Both the position numbers and the translations under genes were made by a program. A stretch of DNA of 64,000 bases from a virus (lineage: Duplodnaviria; Caudoviricetes), in IMG/VR virus record IMGVR_UViG_2933953506_000002, positions 51,775-115,774 of that record; one strand, written 5' to 3'. The notes under the pieces are model-generated. The model saw only the letters and a list, made by a program, of their open reading frames with translations. It had not been told where the DNA came from and ran no database searches. Numbering within the stretch: position 1 is the first letter of the stretch; each line of letters opens with the position of its first letter. Of this stretch, positions 30,906 through 64,000 are shown piece after piece.

Positions 30906-31238
30906 ATGGCCGTCGTGCTGCCGAATGCCACGCTGACGGTGCGCGCGCTCGCCCACCCCTGGGAGCGCGACGCCAACGGCGTGCCCGTACCGCCGAACCC
31001 AAATCAGAAGCCGGCCCCGCGCGGCACCTGGCCCGGGTCGGTCCTCGAGCAGACCGACGGCTCATGGTCGGTACGCCTCGACCCGCAGGCATGGCCGGTC
31101 AAGGAGGGCGACACCATCGAGGACGAGACCGGCAGGTCCTGGACCCTGACCAGCGCCCGCAACCACACCGTGCCCAGATACTCCGACGCCGACTATGTCC
31201 AGGCAACTGCCACCCTCAACCCGCCGGAGATCCCCTGA
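30906..31238 (+). CDS. Head-closure (stopper)-like protein
   Basis: Position and size; RDANG...GDTI...W pattern. Confidence 0.65.
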   Translation: MAVVLPNATLTVRALAHPWERDANGVPVPPNPNQKPAPRGTWPGSVLEQTDGSWSVRLDPQAWPVKEGDTIEDETGRSWTLTSARNHTVPRYSDADYVQATATLNPPEIP

Positions 31239-31768
31239 TGGCGAAGTTCACGGCCGCCCCCGGGCTCGAGGAGGCGCTCGCCCGGATGGTGGCGCCCCAC
31301 GTCCAACGGATCGCTCAGCAGGTGGAGATCGAGGCCAAGCGGCTCGCCCCGCCGGTCAAGCGCTGGATCACCGTCGGCGACGACAAGGTGCGCCCGACCC
31401 ACGTCGCCGCCCAGGGCCAAGAGGTCCCGGGCAACCTGCGATTCGCCATCAACTCCATGGACTGGGACCGCCGGCACCGCGGCCTCGGCGACAAGACGTA
31501 CATGCGAGAGCCCAAGGACCAGTCCTCCCGCGCCGTCGCCAACATCAAGAACTGCCGGTGCACAACCCACAGCGACCCGGACGGCATCGCAAGGAACATC
31601 AACACCGGCCCGCCCGTCGTCTCCGGGAAGAAGGTCACCGTGACCGTCACCGCCCGCGGCCACCTGGTCGTCGAGGCCGAAGTCGGCACGGTCTACCCCG
31701 GCAACCTCGTCGCCGACGGCGCGCACTTCATGTCCCGTGGCGCTGCCATCGTCGCCAGCCGCCGCTAG
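31238..31768 (+). CDS. HK97 gp10-like neck/tail-completion protein with an inserted MuF-like motif
   Basis: EAKRLAP...EVGT...HFM frame with internal WITVGDDKVRPTH...NCRC. Confidence 0.7.
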   Translation: MAKFTAAPGLEEALARMVAPHVQRIAQQVEIEAKRLAPPVKRWITVGDDKVRPTHVAAQGQEVPGNLRFAINSMDWDRRHRGLGDKTYMREPKDQSSRAVANIKNCRCTTHSDPDGIARNINTGPPVVSGKKVTVTVTARGHLVVEAEVGTVYPGNLVADGAHFMSRGAAIVASRR

Positions 31769-47140: not shown

Positions 47141-47464
47141 ATGTCGCAGACGCTCGAATCCCTCTCCAACGGCGCCCAGGTGGGCGCCGTGCTGCCGCTC
47201 CTCACCGCGGTGGTGCAGAAGCCCGCCTGGTCGGCGAAGTACAAGAAGGCCGTGGCGGTCGTGGCCGCGCTCGTCGCCGGCGTCTTCGCCGTGGCAGCAG
47301 ACGGCGGATGGGCCCAGTTCCAGCACGGACAGCTCACAGCCGCGACCCTCCTCGGCGTCCTGGCGGCCTCACAGACGACCTACGACCTCGTCTGGAAGCC
47401 GAGCAAGCTCGCCCCCATGATCGAGGCCCTGACCACCAAGAAAACGGCTCAGCAGGCCGAATAG
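47141..47464 (+). CDS. Holin-like protein
   Basis: 107 aa, three hydrophobic segments, charged C-terminus. Confidence 0.7.
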   Translation: MSQTLESLSNGAQVGAVLPLLTAVVQKPAWSAKYKKAVAVVAALVAGVFAVAADGGWAQFQHGQLTAATLLGVLAASQTTYDLVWKPSKLAPMIEALTTKKTAQQAE

Positions 47465-47505
47465 CGCCCAGGGCACCTGCCCGGCCCTTCGCCGGCGGGT
47501 ACCAT

Positions 47506-47726
47506 CAGCACTCGAGGTGGCCGTACCGCTGCCGCGACAACAGCGTTGAGATAGCCGTCAGGCGTCATTGGATTCTCGGACACCGCGGTGACCCTTCTCC
47601 AGGGACGCGCCTGACACCAGGCATCGAGACCACCGGGTGCGTGCAGAGCACTCGGGGCCGGGGAGCACTGCTCAGCGATGAGCCGGCACACGCTGTCGCA
47701 AAGCTCGGTACGGCCACCTCTTGCTG
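47506..47726 (+). ncRNA. Candidate structured ncRNA or 5' leader (~220 nt)
   Basis: Perfect 15-bp closing stem 47514-47528/47706-47720, three internal hairpins, GCGA tetraloop, TACCAT -10-like box at 47500-47505. Confidence 0.6.
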
Positions 47727-47779
47727 CCCCGGCAGCGCCGAGAGCAGCGGGCCCCCCAACCCGAGGAGGAACAGACCGC

Positions 47780-48601
47780 ATGGCCGAAGCACAGGAGATC
47801 GAGGCGGAGATCAAACGCCTGTCAGGCATGTCTCCCGATGGCCTGATGAACGCGGTCGTCCAGTACGTCACCGGCGGGTCCAAGACCGGCGCCCCACGCG
47901 ACGTCCAAGGCGCGGCACTGCTCTCCCCTCAGATGGCTCCGCGGACCCTCGATGCGCTGGAGCTGGCCCTCAAGCGGGTGCGCAGCTTCATGCCCCGCCA
48001 GGAGGGCGAGAGCAAGAACCAGCAGGCGGCCCGCATCGCTCCGTTCCGGGCAGCTCTCCAGGCGGCCACGCGTCCGTACGAGGACGTCGTCGACGACCTC
48101 GCACACGAGGAAGCCAAACAGCTCGCCGCGCTCGACGACGAGACGTTCGCCCGTCGGTGGACAGCGTTCGTCCGCGACCAGCCGGTCACAGGACCGGTGC
48201 CGCGGCGGGTGCAGGCTCTCGCCTTCCGCTCACCGAGAGTAGCGAGCAGGGCTGAGGCGATCTGCCGTCTGATGATGGAGGAACCGGCCCGGTTCCTGCC
48301 GTCGGCCGCGGCTGGCGAAAGCCGCAAGGCGCGCGATGCCCGGGTCAAGGAGTTCCGCGACCGGGTCCTGGCGGAAGCGCGCTTCCTGCGGTACGCCATC
48401 CAGTACGCCGAGGCGCGCCACGGCCGGATGCCGAGCGAGCCGAACGTCCGACTGCGCGCGCTCCGTCTCCTCGGCCAGCAGCACCCCGAGGAGCTGTCGA
48501 GTCTCCTGCGCCAGGTCCGCGAGGAGCTGATGGAAGGGAAGAAGCAGGCGCGCCGAGACGCACGAGCGGTCCGCCGTGTCGCCGGGCGGAGCGCGCCGTA
48601 A
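47780..48601 (+). CDS. Hypothetical Arg-rich helical protein
   Basis: GAGGAGG RBS before ATG 47780; high-GC3 codon pattern. Confidence 0.8.
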   Translation: MAEAQEIEAEIKRLSGMSPDGLMNAVVQYVTGGSKTGAPRDVQGAALLSPQMAPRTLDALELALKRVRSFMPRQEGESKNQQAARIAPFRAALQAATRPYEDVVDDLAHEEAKQLAALDDETFARRWTAFVRDQPVTGPVPRRVQALAFRSPRVASRAEAICRLMMEEPARFLPSAAAGESRKARDARVKEFRDRVLAEARFLRYAIQYAEARHGRMPSEPNVRLRALRLLGQQHPEELSSLLRQVREELMEGKKQARRDARAVRRVAGRSAP

Positions 48602-49320
48602 GGGCGCGCGACACCGGCCGGATCGTGGAGAGAGGGCGCGCCTGGGGCGCGCCCTTCGTCGTCTCCGGGCGCGCGCGAGCGGCCCGGCCAGGCGCGCCAC
48701 TGGCGCGCGCTCGAGGGGAACCGGCGCGCGCTCGATCAGTACCCGCGCCGCGCGGCGCGGCCGGACCGCGCGGTCGACGGCGCGCTCGAGGACCCGCGCC
48801 GTACTCGCCGCGCGCTGCGCTGGCCCGTTCACCCCGCGCCAGGCATGCGCGCGCCACGCAGCCCACCGGGCGCGCCTCGATGAATTCGCAGGTCACAGGG
48901 CGCGCGTCATCGACTCCGAGGGGCGCGCCGTCCTGAGCGCGCCATACCGCGCGGCTACGCAGGCGTGGGCGCGCCGGTCGAGATCAAGCGCGCCGCGCCG
49001 CGCGAATCGGTGGGCGCGCTGCGCGCCGATCGGGGGCGCGCCCTTCCCCGGCGCGCGCCATCGCGAGGGTTCGCAGGCACGCCAAGATCAGCGCGCGGCG
49101 CGCCCCACGGAGGCGCGCCCTGGGTCCCGTATGGCGCGCGTCGGATGGCGCGGGCGCGCCCCGGGAGGCGATCACGGGCGCGCCGGCCACCGACCGGAGG
49201 CACGTCTGCAGGCGGGGGCAGGGCGCGCCGCGCGCCCCGTGAGGTGAGGTGAGGTGACGCAGGGAGGGAGGCGCGCGAGAGCGGTGGGCGCGCCCCAGGG
49301 GCCCCGGGCGCGCGTCACCT
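48590..49320. repeat. Non-coding tract densely packed with GCGCGC/GGCGCGCC motifs
   Basis: About 30 separate GCGCGC sites counted by eye in ~730 bp between convergent genes. Confidence 0.85.
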
Positions 49321-51026
49321 CACTGCCCTGCGGGCGCGCTGTCGAAGTAGGGGGCGAACTTCTTAGCGAGACCAAGATCCGGCATCGGCGCGCGCCGGTA
49401 GACGTCGGCGAGGACGGCCTGGTCGTTCTCCTCCAGGAGCGCGATCACCTCGGCGCGCTGCCCCTGCACGAAGTCCCGGAGCTGAGCCAAACCCGGCTCT
49501 CCGTTCGCGTAGATCGGCTGGAGGAGGTCACGCCGAGTAGTGAACTTCAAGCGGGCCTGTACCTCGGCTTCGTCGAGCAGAGCCTGGCGCGCGAACTCCG
49601 TCGGGTCGTTCGGCTTCTTCTTCGGGGCGCGTCTGGCCGCGGGCCGGGCCGGGATGTCCTGCGGCTCCTCGGCCGCGCTGGTGTCCTCGGGTGTCTCAGC
49701 GGACGGCGGCTCCTCGGCCTGCGGGTCCGGCGGCGGAGGGGTGGCGCCTTCGGCCGGAGGCTCCTGCTCGGGCGTGGGCGGGACCGGCGCCGAGGACTCC
49801 GGCGGCGTCTCGCGGTGCTCGCGCGCCTGGTCCTGCTCGACCGCGGCCGGCGGAGTGCTGGTCGTCTCTGCCTGCCCGGCGTCGGTGCCGGTCGTCTCTC
49901 CCTGCTTCTTGTCCCCCGCGCCCTGCTGGCGCTTCTCGGCCTGTGCCTTGATGTACGCGAGGGAGCGGGTGATCAGGGCGTCCGCGCTCATCTTCCCGAG
50001 CCGGGACTCGGTGGGGATCTGCTGAAGGGTGCGGATGCCCCACTCCTCGCGGATGCCCTGCAGGGCCATCTCGGGGTTGGTCGGGTCTTCCAGCGCCTTC
50101 TTGATGAGCGCGGCCGCCTTCGGGCCGGTCAGCTCGTTGTCCGCGGGGCGCTGCTGAGCACGCTGGGGCTGGGGTGGCTGGGTGGGCTGCTGCTCGTCGA
50201 GGTAGGCCTCCGGGCGCGACTCGGTGACCTGACGGTGTGTGGCCGCTTCCTCGAACCCCATACGGCGCAAAAGGGCGTCGATGCTGAAGTCCTCGAACGG
50301 GACGGTATCGCCGGGCTTCACGTCCCAGTGCAGGGTGCGCACTCCCGTCAGGTACGCATCACCGATGCCGCGCATCTCCACGATCGCGTCGACGGCGGCC
50401 GGGAGATTCTTCTCCGCCTTGATCTTCCGGGTCGTGTTGCGGGTGGGCTTGTCGTTCTCGAAGGCCGTGACAACCTCCTGACGGGCGATCATCACCACGG
50501 GCCCGGCGTGGCGGCGGAGCATCCAAAGGATCTCGCCCCACCTGTCCTTGGCCCGGTTCCACAAGTCAGGGTCGACGACGACCGGATCGTCCAGGCTGGG
50601 TGCGCGACGACGGCTCTCCTGTGCCTTGTTCACGGCTCGTCGCCGGGCGAACAGGGCCTGCTCGTCGCTGATCATGTCCCACAGGTTGGAGCCATTGTCG
50701 ATGACGATCATGTTCGGCTTGCCCGCGACGCGTTGCGGCTGGTGCACGGCCCATCGGATGGCGTCGAGGATGTCCTGGTAACTGCCGTCATGCGGAACGA
50801 TCTCGTAGTTGGCGCCAGGGACTCGACCGTAGTAGTCGGCTGTTCCCTCAGACCCGCCGATCTCGATCCAGAACGCGATGCCGATCAGGTCGGAGCCGGT
50901 ACCACGGGCGGCCTCGTGGCTCTTGCCGCATTTCTCCGGACCGCACAGCACGATCATGGGCGGGTTGGGGAGACCGGTCGGCCGGCGGGACTTGCGTTCA
51001 CGCAAGGGCGTGGTGATACCAGGCAT
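49320..51026 (-). CDS. AAA_24/Sak4-like P-loop ATPase with a long C-terminal extension
   Basis: GPEKCGKS Walker A, MIVIDN Walker B, VVMIARQ. Confidence 0.8.
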   Translation of the reverse strand: MPGITTPLRERKSRRPTGLPNPPMIVLCGPEKCGKSHEAARGTGSDLIGIAFWIEIGGSEGTADYYGRVPGANYEIVPHDGSYQDILDAIRWAVHQPQRVAGKPNMIVIDNGSNLWDMISDEQALFARRRAVNKAQESRRRAPSLDDPVVVDPDLWNRAKDRWGEILWMLRRHAGPVVMIARQEVVTAFENDKPTRNTTRKIKAEKNLPAAVDAIVEMRGIGDAYLTGVRTLHWDVKPGDTVPFEDFSIDALLRRMGFEEAATHRQVTESRPEAYLDEQQPTQPPQPQRAQQRPADNELTGPKAAALIKKALEDPTNPEMALQGIREEWGIRTLQQIPTESRLGKMSADALITRSLAYIKAQAEKRQQGAGDKKQGETTGTDAGQAETTSTPPAAVEQDQAREHRETPPESSAPVPPTPEQEPPAEGATPPPPDPQAEEPPSAETPEDTSAAEEPQDIPARPAARRAPKKKPNDPTEFARQALLDEAEVQARLKFTTRRDLLQPIYANGEPGLAQLRDFVQGQRAEVIALLEENDQAVLADVYRRAPMPDLGLAKKFAPYFDSAPAGQ

Positions 51027-51631: not shown

Positions 51632-52870
51632 TTACGGCCGTGCTGCGGTCATCACGTCCTCGACCGTGAAGTTATCGGGCAGGGTCTGGTTCAGGAGTTT
51701 GGCCGCGTACGTGGAGAGCAGGCGGCGGCGGACCTTGCGGCCGTTCTGCGCGGTCTGGCCCATCGCCCGTCCGATGGCGGAGCCGGTCAGGTCTCCGCTG
51801 TTGAAGCGGTCTATGTCGCGGGCCTGGATCGCATCCTTGATCATGTCGTACACCTGCGCCTCGGTGAGCGGGGTCGACGTCGGCGCCGGAGTCGGGGCGG
51901 GTGACTGAGCAGCGGGCGCGGGGGATGGGGCTGGGACTGAGGCCGGGGCCGCTGTGGGTGCGGGAACGGTGGCGGTCACCCGGCGGGGCGTCGCCTGGGC
52001 AGCCGGGACGGGCGCGAGCGGCTTGGCGACCGGTGCCGCGGGAGCGGGCAGAGCAGCGAAGGGCCCGGCGGTCTCGATGCCGGCCGCGGCGAGCCCGTCC
52101 GGGGCGGTCTCGGCGAGGGGGATGCCGTTGCGCGCCAGGCGCAGCGGCAGCAGTGCCTCGACCGGCGCCTTCCGGCGCCACTTCCGGCCGAACCGTCCGT
52201 GGAGCTTGGCCTGGTAGACCAGGCGCTCCTGCTCCAGTTTGAGGGCGGTGTCGTACGACTCCTGCTCCCACAGGTTCATGCGGCGCCACAGCACGAACGT
52301 GGGCCCCGGGGAGAGGAGCCAGCGCTTCCAGCGGACCTTGTCGAGGCGGCGGCGACGGCCGGTCGCGGCGCCGATGCGGACGGCGTAGGCGTGTGCGGCG
52401 ATCTCGGAAACGCCGACCCACAGCAGGGAGATCGCGCCGTGTGCGACCTTCGCCCACAGGGAGTTGCCCGCGGCGACGTTCAGGGCGCAGGTGATCAGGC
52501 TCAGCGCCCAGGGCACGAACCGCACCCACGCCAGAGCCATGTCCATACGGATCAGGTAGAGGTTGGCCGCGGTGAACACGGGAATTGCCGAGTCGATGGA
52601 CACGGGCAGCACCCACGGGTCATCGAATCCCCAGGACACCGCTTTGAGGGAGACCGCGTCGAAGGACGCGTAGAAGCCCAGGGCGCCGACGCCGACGGCG
52701 AGCAGCGAGGTGAGGACGGCGCCGAAGCACTCCCAGCGGGTGAGCGGCGGCACTCCGGACTCGGTGAGCGGCTTCGGCTGCTTCGCCCTGCCCTTACGGG
52801 CACGCAAAAACGGCAGGTTCGACAAGACACCATCCCTTCGTTCGGGTCGCCCCGGCCGACGTATGCTCAT
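51632..52870 (-). CDS. DUF2637-type membrane protein
   Basis: GFYASFDAV...WVLPVSID...LNVAAG...RWLLSPGPTF.LWRRM.LWE pattern seen in actinomycete mobile elements. Confidence 0.8.
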   Translation of the reverse strand: MSIRRPGRPERRDGVLSNLPFLRARKGRAKQPKPLTESGVPPLTRWECFGAVLTSLLAVGVGALGFYASFDAVSLKAVSWGFDDPWVLPVSIDSAIPVFTAANLYLIRMDMALAWVRFVPWALSLITCALNVAAGNSLWAKVAHGAISLLWVGVSEIAAHAYAVRIGAATGRRRRLDKVRWKRWLLSPGPTFVLWRRMNLWEQESYDTALKLEQERLVYQAKLHGRFGRKWRRKAPVEALLPLRLARNGIPLAETAPDGLAAAGIETAGPFAALPAPAAPVAKPLAPVPAAQATPRRVTATVPAPTAAPASVPAPSPAPAAQSPAPTPAPTSTPLTEAQVYDMIKDAIQARDIDRFNSGDLTGSAIGRAMGQTAQNGRKVRRRLLSTYAAKLLNQTLPDNFTVEDVMTAARP

Positions 52871-62764: not shown

Positions 62765-64000
62765 GTGGCACGCAAGCCCACTGTCTATAAGCGGTGCGAA
62801 TGCTCCGATCAGAACAGGCCCAAGAAGGGCGGATGTCACCACAGTTGGGAATACAACCTCACGGTCGACGGCAAGCGCACGCGCGCGTCGGTTCCCGAGT
62901 CCGTTGGCCTGACCCAGGCTCAAGCTCAGGCACTTCTGGACGGAACACCTCCAGGCGCGGCACCGGAGCCGGTGGAGTCAAACCTCACCTTTCGACAGTG
63001 GGCGGCTGACTGGCTCAGCAGGCGGCGGGTGAAGGACACCAGCCTGGAGAAGTACGAGATAGCCATCCGCGTGCACCTCAATCCACGCTGGGGCAGACAA
63101 CGCCTAAGAAACATCAAGAAGGCTCAGGTCGAAGCCTGGGTCCAGGAGATGGAGGACAACGAGAAGCTCGCCAACTCCACCGCTGAGGGCCACTGGAAGG
63201 TCTTCCAGATGGTCCTGAAGGACGCCCTTCAGAACGGAAAGATCGCCTCAAACCCGACCTACGAAGTCGATGGGCCGTACGTAGGCGAGTCGACGTCGTA
63301 CGTCTTCACACCCGACGAGTGCTGGGCGATCTACGACGAGTTCCCCGAGCGCTACCGCCTCATCCCCATGTTCGGTTTCGCTTGCGGCGTCCGGCAGGCC
63401 GAAGCGTTCGCTGTGTGCGATGACGTTATCGACGGCGCCCAAGGCCTGCTCACCGTGCGTCGGCAGGTGCTGAGGATCAAGGAGACTCGCTACAGACCCC
63501 TCCTGGTAGACCGCCTGAAGACGAGCCCGCGCCTCAACTCGAAGAACACGCCGATGCCTCCGTACCTCCTGGAAGCTGTCGCCGAGCACACCCAGCGTTT
63601 CCCCCCTCGATCCACGAAGACCGTGATGTGGGAGCACAGGAAGAAGATCGACGACTGTAAGCGGGGCTCGGCCCGAGCACTCTTCTGGTCGTCACGGGGC
63701 AATCTGCTGTGCCGCAACCACTTCAACGATGACCTGTGGAAGCCCACCATGCTGAAGTTGGGCATCAAGGACGAGGAGGGGAACCTTCCGACCTTCCATG
63801 ACCTCCGGCACACCTTCATCTCCACATGCCTCCAGAACGGCATACCGGAGCACACCGTGGCCGCCTGGGTGGGCGACTCCGTCGATGAGCTTCGGCGCAC
63901 GTACAGCCACCTCCTGAAGGACCACGTCGACACGCACGGGGCGGTGGCCGCTGGCCTGACGGCGCGGCCGAAGCTGACCATCGTGCGCAACGCGGCGTGA
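62765..64000 (+). CDS. int: Tyrosine recombinase/integrase
   Basis: GVRQAE, LKT, FHDLRHT and TYSH catalytic motifs; HLNPRWG core-binding pattern. Confidence 0.93.
   Translation: MARKPTVYKRCECSDQNRPKKGGCHHSWEYNLTVDGKRTRASVPESVGLTQAQAQALLDGTPPGAAPEPVESNLTFRQWAADWLSRRRVKDTSLEKYEIAIRVHLNPRWGRQRLRNIKKAQVEAWVQEMEDNEKLANSTAEGHWKVFQMVLKDALQNGKIASNPTYEVDGPYVGESTSYVFTPDECWAIYDEFPERYRLIPMFGFACGVRQAEAFAVCDDVIDGAQGLLTVRRQVLRIKETRYRPLLVDRLKTSPRLNSKNTPMPPYLLEAVAEHTQRFPPRSTKTVMWEHRKKIDDCKRGSARALFWSSRGNLLCRNHFNDDLWKPTMLKLGIKDEEGNLPTFHDLRHTFISTCLQNGIPEHTVAAWVGDSVDELRRTYSHLLKDHVDTHGAVAAGLTARPKLTIVRNAA

Follow-up and report, generated by a model that had tools for sequence, protein, structure and literature searches.

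A new family of highly structured RNA upstream of an orphan gene in Streptomyces phages

raiA, ROOL, GOLLD and HEARO are orphan large structured RNAs of bacteria and phages that were found by comparative genomics, and all four have Rfam models. About 77 nucleotides (nt) long, the c4 RNA of P1/P7 immI matures through RNase P and regulates the genes that follow it; its target operon encodes an antirepressor. The lambda '6S' RNA is a short constitutive leader transcript of a lambdoid late promoter. Non-coding RNA regions acting as origins of extrachromosomal mycobacteriophage prophages have been described as well (Wetzel et al. 2020; PMC7157519); in the excerpted text of that paper these RNAs lie beside parA, within regions of ~600 bp, are transcribed away from parA and are given no defined conserved fold. 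The element described here is a structured RNA of 207 nt, counted between the outer ends of its helix P1, in a 64,000-nt stretch of viral DNA (the window; positions 51,775 to 115,774 of IMG/VR record IMGVR_UViG_2933953506_000002, 115,774 bp, classed as provirus). It occupies a 315-nt gap between a hydrophobic 107-aa open reading frame (ORF; p107, 47141-47464) and a 273-aa ORF (p273, from 47780), all positions being those of the window, and belongs to a widespread family of temperate Streptomyces phages or phage-plasmids of about 126 kb.

The RNA resembles the raiA/ROOL/GOLLD/HEARO class in its complex multi-helix fold, strong covariation, conserved junctions, variable peripheral hairpins and abundance in RNA samples; unlike these, it matches no Rfam model, is confined to one Streptomyces phage lineage and always stands in one gene context. 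Like the c4 RNA of P1/P7, it would be a small stable RNA that comes from the 5' part of a temperate-phage unit, is complementary to the region of the next gene's ribosome-binding site (RBS) and builds up apart from the mRNA, with a presumed co-transcription; unlike c4, it is ~200 nt long with a four-way junction, has no sequence or Rfam relation to c4, precedes a protein without known family, and has no covariation in its proposed pairing with the RBS region. It also recalls lambda '6S' and StxS (PMC7547250, as excerpted), abundant RNAs of ~200 nt that arise at a prophage promoter when the genes downstream are silent; those RNAs end at an intrinsic terminator before a whole late operon that is reached by Q read-through, whereas here no terminator-like site is seen and one gene is followed by converging genes. 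As among the mycobacteriophages of Wetzel et al. (PMC7157519), integrating and ParA-bearing, extrachromosomal-looking members occur within one actinobacteriophage family; unlike the origin RNAs in the excerpted account, the Streptomyces phage RNA is kept in integrated copies and where a neighbouring palindrome array is deleted. Stable RNAs that phages encode as leaders or regulators are familiar as a kind; this fold and this context are new.

Structure, covariation and detection of the RNA

Comparison of 39 distinct copies (Streptomyces prophages, phage Gilgamesh and metagenomes; identical cores merged) identified the element as the gene for a highly structured plus-strand RNA of a new family. 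Homologues were collected by four independent routes: the downstream protein, an exact sequence pattern, a covariance model and a looser metagenome pattern. The protein route gave 8 loci in IMG/VR and then 19 with a profile, and the exact pattern, made of two invariant blocks, gave 16 viral and 17 genome loci. The covariance-model search of 151 Streptomyces genomes returned a match in 8, five of them new and much more divergent, and the looser pattern returned 6 loci, one of which was a family member by the model. The remaining five metagenome matches were not family by the model and, like two chance matches of the pattern that gave no model hit (L040 and L045), were dropped before any count. 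Copies with cores identical to the window (L009, L046) or to L023 (L024) were merged, and the alignment excludes L055, which has the place of L047, and L079, which has the score of L056. The covariance model R1 scored 210.1 bits at 47514..47720, its sole full-score match in the window. No second copy of the RNA and no repeat of the promoter motif GGCGGGTACCATC was found in the window or genome (3 matches at two or fewer mismatches, 2.4 expected).

In the consensus fold a long closing stem, P1-P3, opens into a four-way junction, from which the arms P4, P5 and P6 extend. The parts are as follows.

47514-28 / 47706-20, plus strand: P1, 96.5% paired, 10 of 17 pairs with double changes over 39 sequences
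47531-32 / 47703-04, plus strand: P2a, inward continuation of P1
47534-39 / 47694-99, plus strand: P2
47543-46 / 47690-93, plus strand: P3, opening into the four-way junction
47550..47625, plus strand: P4 arm, a long irregular hairpin; helices 4-6 with double changes in 18 of 20 pairs
47550-56 / 47620-25, plus strand: P4a
47557-65 / 47607-15, plus strand: P4b
47568-72 / 47598-602, plus strand: P4c
47578-83 / 47588-93, plus strand: P4d
47593..47600, plus strand: pyrimidine-rich strand CCUUCUCC (most members have GUGUUCCUC(U/C)), complement of the p273 Shine-Dalgarno region
47633-40 / 47648-55, plus strand: P5 hairpin CCGGGUGC / GCACUCGG, 98.1% paired, 5 of 8 pairs with double changes
47657-61 / 47683-87, plus strand: P6, GCCGG/CCGGC, with an inner hairpin at 47663-66 / 47670-73; invariant in 39/39
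47657..47693, plus strand: most conserved core, made of P6, the inner hairpin, the strand GCGAUGA, and CACACGC running into P3

The consensus structure was written from the fold of the window and comparison by hand, and five covariation measures were compared with 500 shuffles. In a plain MAFFT alignment of 30 distinct copies, not fitted to any structure, 89.9% of cells were paired, against 36-42% when the partner was slid by 1-3 columns. Nineteen pairs were changed on both sides, a number reached by 0/500 shuffles, and there were 75 double-change cells compared with 30.8 +/- 4.1 in the shuffles; the measure of further pair types was reached by 2/500 shuffles and the other four by 0/500. The alignment of all 39 copies, with 70 base pairs, is fitted to the model and leans towards the structure; it had 92.7% of cells paired (38-40% when slid), double changes in 40/70 pairs (23.1 +/- 2.2 in shuffles) and 239 double-change cells (71.9 +/- 6.4), and 0/500 shuffles reached any of the five measures. 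Compensatory double changes in the homologue alignments were well above the controls, covariation being one of the checks named in the note made earlier from the sequence of the window alone (the earlier note).

The folding energy of 47500-47730 was -112.1 kcal/mol, compared with -90.8 +/- 5.1 for 200 dinucleotide shuffles (z -4.16, 0/200 as good). The opposite strand of this segment also folds well (z -3.71), and therefore energy alone gives no strand. The plus strand was assigned because the G.U pairs fit this strand only (P1 has 43 G.U cells over the 39 copies, which become A.C if read on the other strand), because the model scored 139-215 bits on the plus strand and 18-29 bits antisense at the same loci, and because P1 is compensatory in L088, the most distant member. 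In L088 this helix is rewritten as GUCGUGCCCGC/GCGGGCACGAC with four compensatory pairs, and the P6 core is nearly unchanged.

All the elements read in the earlier note were found where it had placed them, among them the perfect 15-bp closing helix GAGGTGGCCGTACCG / CGGTACGGCCACCTC (47514-28 / 47706-20; 100% complementary in the repeat search, with 177 nt between the arms), the inner arm GTCAGGCG / CGCCTGAC (47557-64 / 47608-15) and the inner arm CGGGTGC / GCACTCG (47634-40 / 47648-54). The outward extension CAGCA (47506-10) / TGCTG (47722-26) is present in the window; it is not conserved and lies outside the RNA contigs described below. The hairpin GCTCA-GCGA-TGAGC (47670-83), described in the note as carrying a GNRA tetraloop, is likewise present in the window; in the family the tetraloop is no conserved feature of this hairpin: the stem is perfect only in window-type copies and is broken in L010, L011, L035 and L049. 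Most members have GGAGC-GGUU-GCUCC instead, and the window is able to form the equivalent GAGC-ACU-GCUC.

P6 blocks were part of two of the search patterns and bias the loci derived from these; P6 was equally invariant in loci found via the protein or the model. The joining strands of the junction (UGA, GAGACCA, G and ACA) are conserved, as is the 7-nt P5 loop GUG(C/U)AGA (GUGCAGA in the window). The tip of P4 varies in length, and a Gilgamesh-like subgroup has an extra hairpin there, capped by GCAA, GAAA, GUAA or GUGA; three members have a hairpin inserted into the P1/P2 internal loop, with a loop of GUAA, GCAA or CCUG type. The fourth pair of P5 (47636/47652) is G.U in 32/39 copies and, in the divergent subgroup L057-L060, a C.C mismatch rather than a Watson-Crick pair; this suggests a non-canonical site that is kept, perhaps as a point of contact. 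The AUG within GCGAUGA, which in the window is in frame with p273 (a 307-aa ORF, 47678-48601), was considered as a start codon and rejected, since in relatives the triplet is AAG, AGG or ACG and the spacer differs in length by non-multiples of three, which breaks the frame.

Known families were searched with Rfam 15 (4227 models), which gave 0 matches over the whole window at gathering thresholds; at E values up to 10, region 47400-47850 gave 4 noise hits (13.6-17.2 bits against thresholds of 45-70, three on the wrong strand). ARAGORN found 0 tRNA or tmRNA genes in the window, and full-text literature searches found no description of this RNA. More than ten thousand unnamed structured RNAs have been predicted in viral contigs (PMC10690425); the main text of that paper makes no mention of Streptomyces, Actinobacteria or actinomycetes, nor of lysis or prophages, and its supplementary lists might contain the motif. 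For a retron msr-msd, the inverted repeat is present but the adjacent genes are without Pfam match and hence without a reverse transcriptase domain, the rest of the genome not having been searched for one. By sequence and structure the RNA is a new family without known relatives.

For detection of the RNA in environmental samples, a run index was queried with 3.3 kb. It listed 24 runs, 23 of which hold 5-7% of the sampled words, corresponding to about 200 nt, and 14 of the listed rows are recorded as RNA, the sources being soil, compost, rhizosphere, plants and outdoor samples. Four of the 24 runs, from four studies, were mapped in detail, the shares of 5-7% in the other 20 being a hint only. 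In 4/4 of the metatranscriptomes mapped, there is a contig that over its whole length matches the element and nothing else, at 0-1 differences (joint extent 47521-47714).

Run X6: contig of 187 nt, covering 47523-47708
Run X13: contig of 191 nt, covering 47521-47711
Run X12: contig of 192 nt, covering 47522-47713
Run X9: contig of 200 nt, covering 47522-47714

X13 has one further contig, which represents a diverged copy of this RNA. The other mapped material consisted of short partial matches (18-34 nt) with unrelated continuations, and nothing comparable was seen for the flanking genes, although the uncovered parts of the stretch are no evidence that these genes are silent. Assembled contigs give no true ends, strand or level, and the coincidence of their ends across studies is a weak hint. 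A stable RNA species of about the size of the folded domain (roughly 195-207 nt) exists, with ends at or just inside P1. The contig ends 47522/47714 were considered as an RNase III cut with a 2-nt 3' overhang and set aside, as contigs lack true ends and library chemistry could trim ~8 nt. The RNA appears to be the one product of these phages that survives in RNA samples of soil, compost and rhizosphere. The earlier note had proposed a discrete structured RNA without known family and had asked whether it is transcribed; the empty Rfam search, the covariation and the stand-alone contigs in all four metatranscriptomes agree with it.

Putative promoter, spacer and association with p273

The sequences flanking the folded domain, from the p107 stop codon to the end of p273, contain the following features.

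47141..47464, plus strand: p107, the upstream gene, 107 aa, hydrophobic; last gene of the tail/lysis-side block
47476..47499, plus strand: G+C-rich hairpin CCUGC-C-CGGC / GCCG-GCGGG, directly after the p107 stop, its 3' arm abutting the -10 box
47500..47505, plus strand: -10-like box TACCAT, within the invariant block GGGTAnnATC
47723-36, plus strand: spacer hairpin GCUGCC-CC-GGCAGC, outside the stable RNA and not covered by contigs
47738-50, plus strand: small spacer hairpin with the conserved loop AGAGCA(G), 3 bp in the window and 4-6 bp elsewhere, not covered by contigs
47763..47772, plus strand: Shine-Dalgarno region GAGGAGGAAC of p273, whose ORF starts behind GAGGAGG
47780..48601, plus strand: p273, the downstream gene, a 273-aa all-helical arginine-rich orphan, always 3' of the RNA

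The suggestion that TACCAT acts like a -10 element was upheld: TAnnAT is kept in 30/30 listed copies (21 TACCAT, 6 TATCAT, 2 TAACAT and 1 TACAAT), with T1, A2, A5 and T6 fixed and only the two middle positions varying. The first base of P1 follows the box by 8 nt in the window and by 6-8 nt across the 30 listed copies. The hairpin before the box resembles a terminator stem but lacks a U tract and was not scored by the U-tract terminator scan; between homologues its two arms vary in concert. The stem of the small spacer hairpin also covaries, from CCCG/CGGG to UUCG/CGAA and CUUG/CGAG, with C-G to U-A in L036 and U-A/U.G in subgroup C. AGAGCA occurs twice, in the loop of this hairpin and in the P5 loop with its 3' strand (47641-47651), and on sequence grounds the two sites could bind the same factor.

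The sequence comparisons indicate that the RNA travels with p273, as the earlier note had supposed in tying it to the downstream gene. The RNA is present at each of the 19 loci that the p273 profile retrieved and ends about 70-80 nt before the start codon, and in 33 aligned copies the distance to the p273 start is 59-80 nt. Among the loci found with the RNA model, 7/7 of those checked have a p273 homologue downstream and keep the order p134-p132-p107-RNA-p273, down to 45-49% protein identity; in L061, the most divergent of the genome-scan loci, the p273 match is partial (39% over 102 residues).

The distant member L088 (a soil metagenome contig, 1899-2953) has the same association in another gene context. 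There p107, which lies upstream of the RNA in Gilgamesh-like phages, is absent, and the upstream neighbour is a divergently oriented gene, on the other strand, for a helix-turn-helix protein of XRE/Cro-C1 type (91 aa; Pfam E 1e-14). By hhalign the downstream ORF of 167 aa aligns with p273 over its C-terminal two thirds (probability 98.2%, E 5e-14). P1 ends only 9 nt before the GGGAGG Shine-Dalgarno sequence of this ORF, and therefore the RNA must be part of the leader of the p273-like gene. The layout of L088 recalls a genetic-switch or immunity region.

L039 (= G002:C12; reverse strand, ~2107-2542 of the reversed locus) is a natural deletion variant in which p273 ends after residue 103, with the C-terminal 170 residues deleted; the sequence reaches the end of the Sak4-like gene within ~120 nt, and the whole GGCGCGCC palindrome array that otherwise follows p273 is gone from this circular 126-kb contig.

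The p273 protein was predicted as a confident all-helical model (pLDDT 87.7, pTM 0.74), arginine-rich and with a basic tail. It had no match in Pfam, PHROGs, PADLOC or NCBIfam; a PDB profile search gave only Cmr5 at E 0.05, a search of the ESM Atlas no usable match, Foldseek against PDB and BFVD a best TM of about 0.25, and VIA-align wide a best Z of 5.8, below the meaningful level for helical proteins. Its 94 clusters are all named hypothetical and all labelled Streptomyces except one, labelled [Kitasatospora].

Possible functions of the RNA

The reading that we prefer, and put forward tentatively, is that of a promoter-driven stable 5'-leader RNA domain which exerts c4-like translational control of p273 in cis and in trans. 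Transcription would start at the element's own -10-only promoter (TACCAT, 47500-05), about 7-8 nt before P1, and the RNA would be the 5' part of the p273 transcription unit, controlling p273 expression after transcription. The pyrimidine-rich strand of P4 (GUGUUCCUC / CCUUCUCC), on the 3' side of the arm's tip, would pair with the Shine-Dalgarno region GGAGGAAC(AC) and block translation, both in cis on the nascent transcript and, in the manner of c4, in trans as accumulated RNA; a processing enzyme, or a protein that sets the switch, would act at the near-invariant P5-P6 core. In a reading of 30 rows, the best duplex between an RNA and its own translation initiation region (TIR) usually uses the P4 pyrimidine-rich strand. 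The ten-pair helix of this anti-Shine-Dalgarno stretch is paired in 84.6% of cells, compared with 46-65% when slid, and cognate RNA/TIR duplexes average -26.9 kcal/mol compared with -25.1 kcal/mol for non-cognate ones (label permutation p = 0.0002, an optimistic value as the permutation test treats related sequences as independent). Functional insight would help to explain the control that large actinophages exert over a single conserved orphan gene where late and replication genes adjoin, and could add an RNA regulator or an RNA-protein pair for Streptomyces genetics, the RNA being short and self-contained.

Several results weigh against translational control of this kind. The anti-Shine-Dalgarno helix has 0 pairs with double changes and 405/500 shuffles are as good, which amounts to conservation of both sides only. 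Only 14/36 cognate duplexes beat 95% of shuffled TIRs, those of L011, L016, L039, L042 and L043 are no better than chance, and part of the stretch is itself paired in P4d. The P5-P6 core, and not the anti-Shine-Dalgarno strand, is the most conserved part, and therefore control of one RBS cannot explain the whole molecule. As to the transcript, no -35 element is conserved among homologues and a sigma-70 consensus scan around the element was without hit; a scan for U-tract terminators around the element found only three minus-strand terminator-like sites, inside p273, and none on the plus strand. We infer the start at the helix and the separate accumulation of the RNA, the contigs being blind to ends, strand and level. 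The L039 RNA is intact (212.8 bits) despite its truncated p273, which fits a role beyond p273, or a recent deletion.

A stand-alone RNA working in a ribonucleoprotein or as a decoy is possible, though we lean away from it; here the invariant P5-P6 core would be bound by a protein of the host or the phage, whether p273 or a different one, and p273 would be linked to the RNA only genetically. The core GGGGCCGGGGAG...GCGAUGA.CCGGCACACG hardly varies even in members whose P1 is completely rewritten, the RNA stays intact next to the truncated p273 of L039 and stands out far above its neighbours in RNA samples, and p273 is itself an arginine-rich helical protein with a basic tail. However, p273 matches no RNA-binding family or fold, and in all members the RNA stands strictly and directly ahead of the p273 start, with a distance of 9 nt to the Shine-Dalgarno sequence in L088, a placement more typical of a leader.

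Rather unlikely, in our view, is a new class of large RNA with tertiary structure and an activity of its own (for example a ribozyme, a ligand sensor, or a mimic by which a host machine, for instance ribosome or RNA polymerase, is captured) that reprograms lysogens. High-level expression in the lysogen would then be expected, with p273 as partner or client and not as target, and with the active site in the 45-nt P5-P6 core, which stays the same while all other helices are rewritten.

We give little credence to a riboswitch-like leader that senses a ligand or signal and controls p273 translation in cis, with the junction and the P6 core as binding pocket. Conserved junction strands, length-variable peripheral hairpins capped by GNRA loops, strong covariation, an anti-Shine-Dalgarno-like strand and a place in the 5' untranslated region close to the Shine-Dalgarno sequence would all suit such a leader. 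The closing stem P1-P3, with at least 25 pairs, is very stable and unlike a switching P1, though; the RNA precedes one gene family only, with no metabolic theme, and the terminator scan around the element found no alternative terminator/antiterminator fold.

For the next alternative the region beyond p273 has to be considered.

48600..49330, no strand: non-coding gap with palindrome GGCGCGCC, between p273 and the Sak4-like gene; membership in the unit uncertain
49320-51026, minus strand: Sak4-like ATPase gene, converging on p273

This gap of 730 bp holds 13 of the 19 GGCGCGCC palindromes and 36 of the 118 GCGCGC hexamers of the window, and the same gap has 9-17 GGCGCGCC copies in 8/8 relatives checked, Gilgamesh included. 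Judged by its sequence, the array may bind a protein, or may serve as an origin or in the manner of a centromere; Z-DNA could also be favoured by the alternating CG runs in 48600-49330.

It is equally improbable that the RNA primes or regulates the replication or maintenance of a plasmid-type prophage, with the GGCGCGCC array as origin or centromere. The map position is that of the phages in the excerpted text of PMC7157519, after tail and lysis genes and before a leftward block; the RNA is expressed, as seen from the contigs, and the palindrome array is conserved next to it. Plasmid-like members are suggested by p273 clusters on stand-alone contigs of 120-136 kb (41/94), which carry a ParA-like (CbiA) gene, by G002:C12, which closes on itself with a 30-nt overlap, and by another such contig that breaks inside the palindrome array. 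Yet the RNA is equally conserved in a chromosome-integrated copy (G001), and the provirus record of the window keeps it with two tyrosine recombinases and no ParA or ParB match. L039 keeps the RNA on its circular 126-kb contig with the array deleted, L088 has the RNA and a p273-like gene with no array, and the 3' end is locked in a helix, unlike that of a primer. The stand-alone contigs G002:C12 and G003:C18 each have the ParA-like gene, no ParB_N match and one tyrosine recombinase, which points to a family of integrating and plasmid-like phages that have swapped modules, as the mycobacteriophages of cluster A have.

A DNA-level element instead of an RNA (protein-binding inverted repeat, cruciform, attP or origin), for which the perfect 15-bp inverted repeat and the good folding of the opposite strand might speak, is practically dismissed by the 43 G.U cells of P1 that would be A.C mismatches on the other strand, by antisense scores of only 18-29 bits, by RNA contigs that cover exactly the element, and by inserted GNRA-capped hairpins, which are meaningless in duplex DNA.

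Three roles named in the earlier note found no support. Rfam holds a model for the phi29-type packaging RNA (pRNA); no Rfam match reached threshold and the locus is not beside packaging genes. For an antitoxin RNA of a type III toxin-antitoxin system, no tandem repeats were found in 47300-47900 and no PADLOC match for p273 or p107. An antiterminator would have no downstream operon to act on, since the next genes converge.

The locus and neighbouring genes

The locus is placed between lysis-side genes and the replication block. The upstream gene p107 had no match in Pfam, PHROG, PADLOC or NCBIfam. Among deposited phages the only relative of the window is Streptomyces phage Gilgamesh (129 kb), in which the counterpart gap lies between hypothetical genes 75 and 76; next come a gap of 743 bp and an AAA-ATPase gene in converging orientation. 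One of the two tyrosine-recombinase genes of the window's record is at 63308-63919 of the window (115082-115693 of the record) and the other at 30932-31504 of the record; the position of the former, at the extreme end of the record, fits an integrase at the prophage border.

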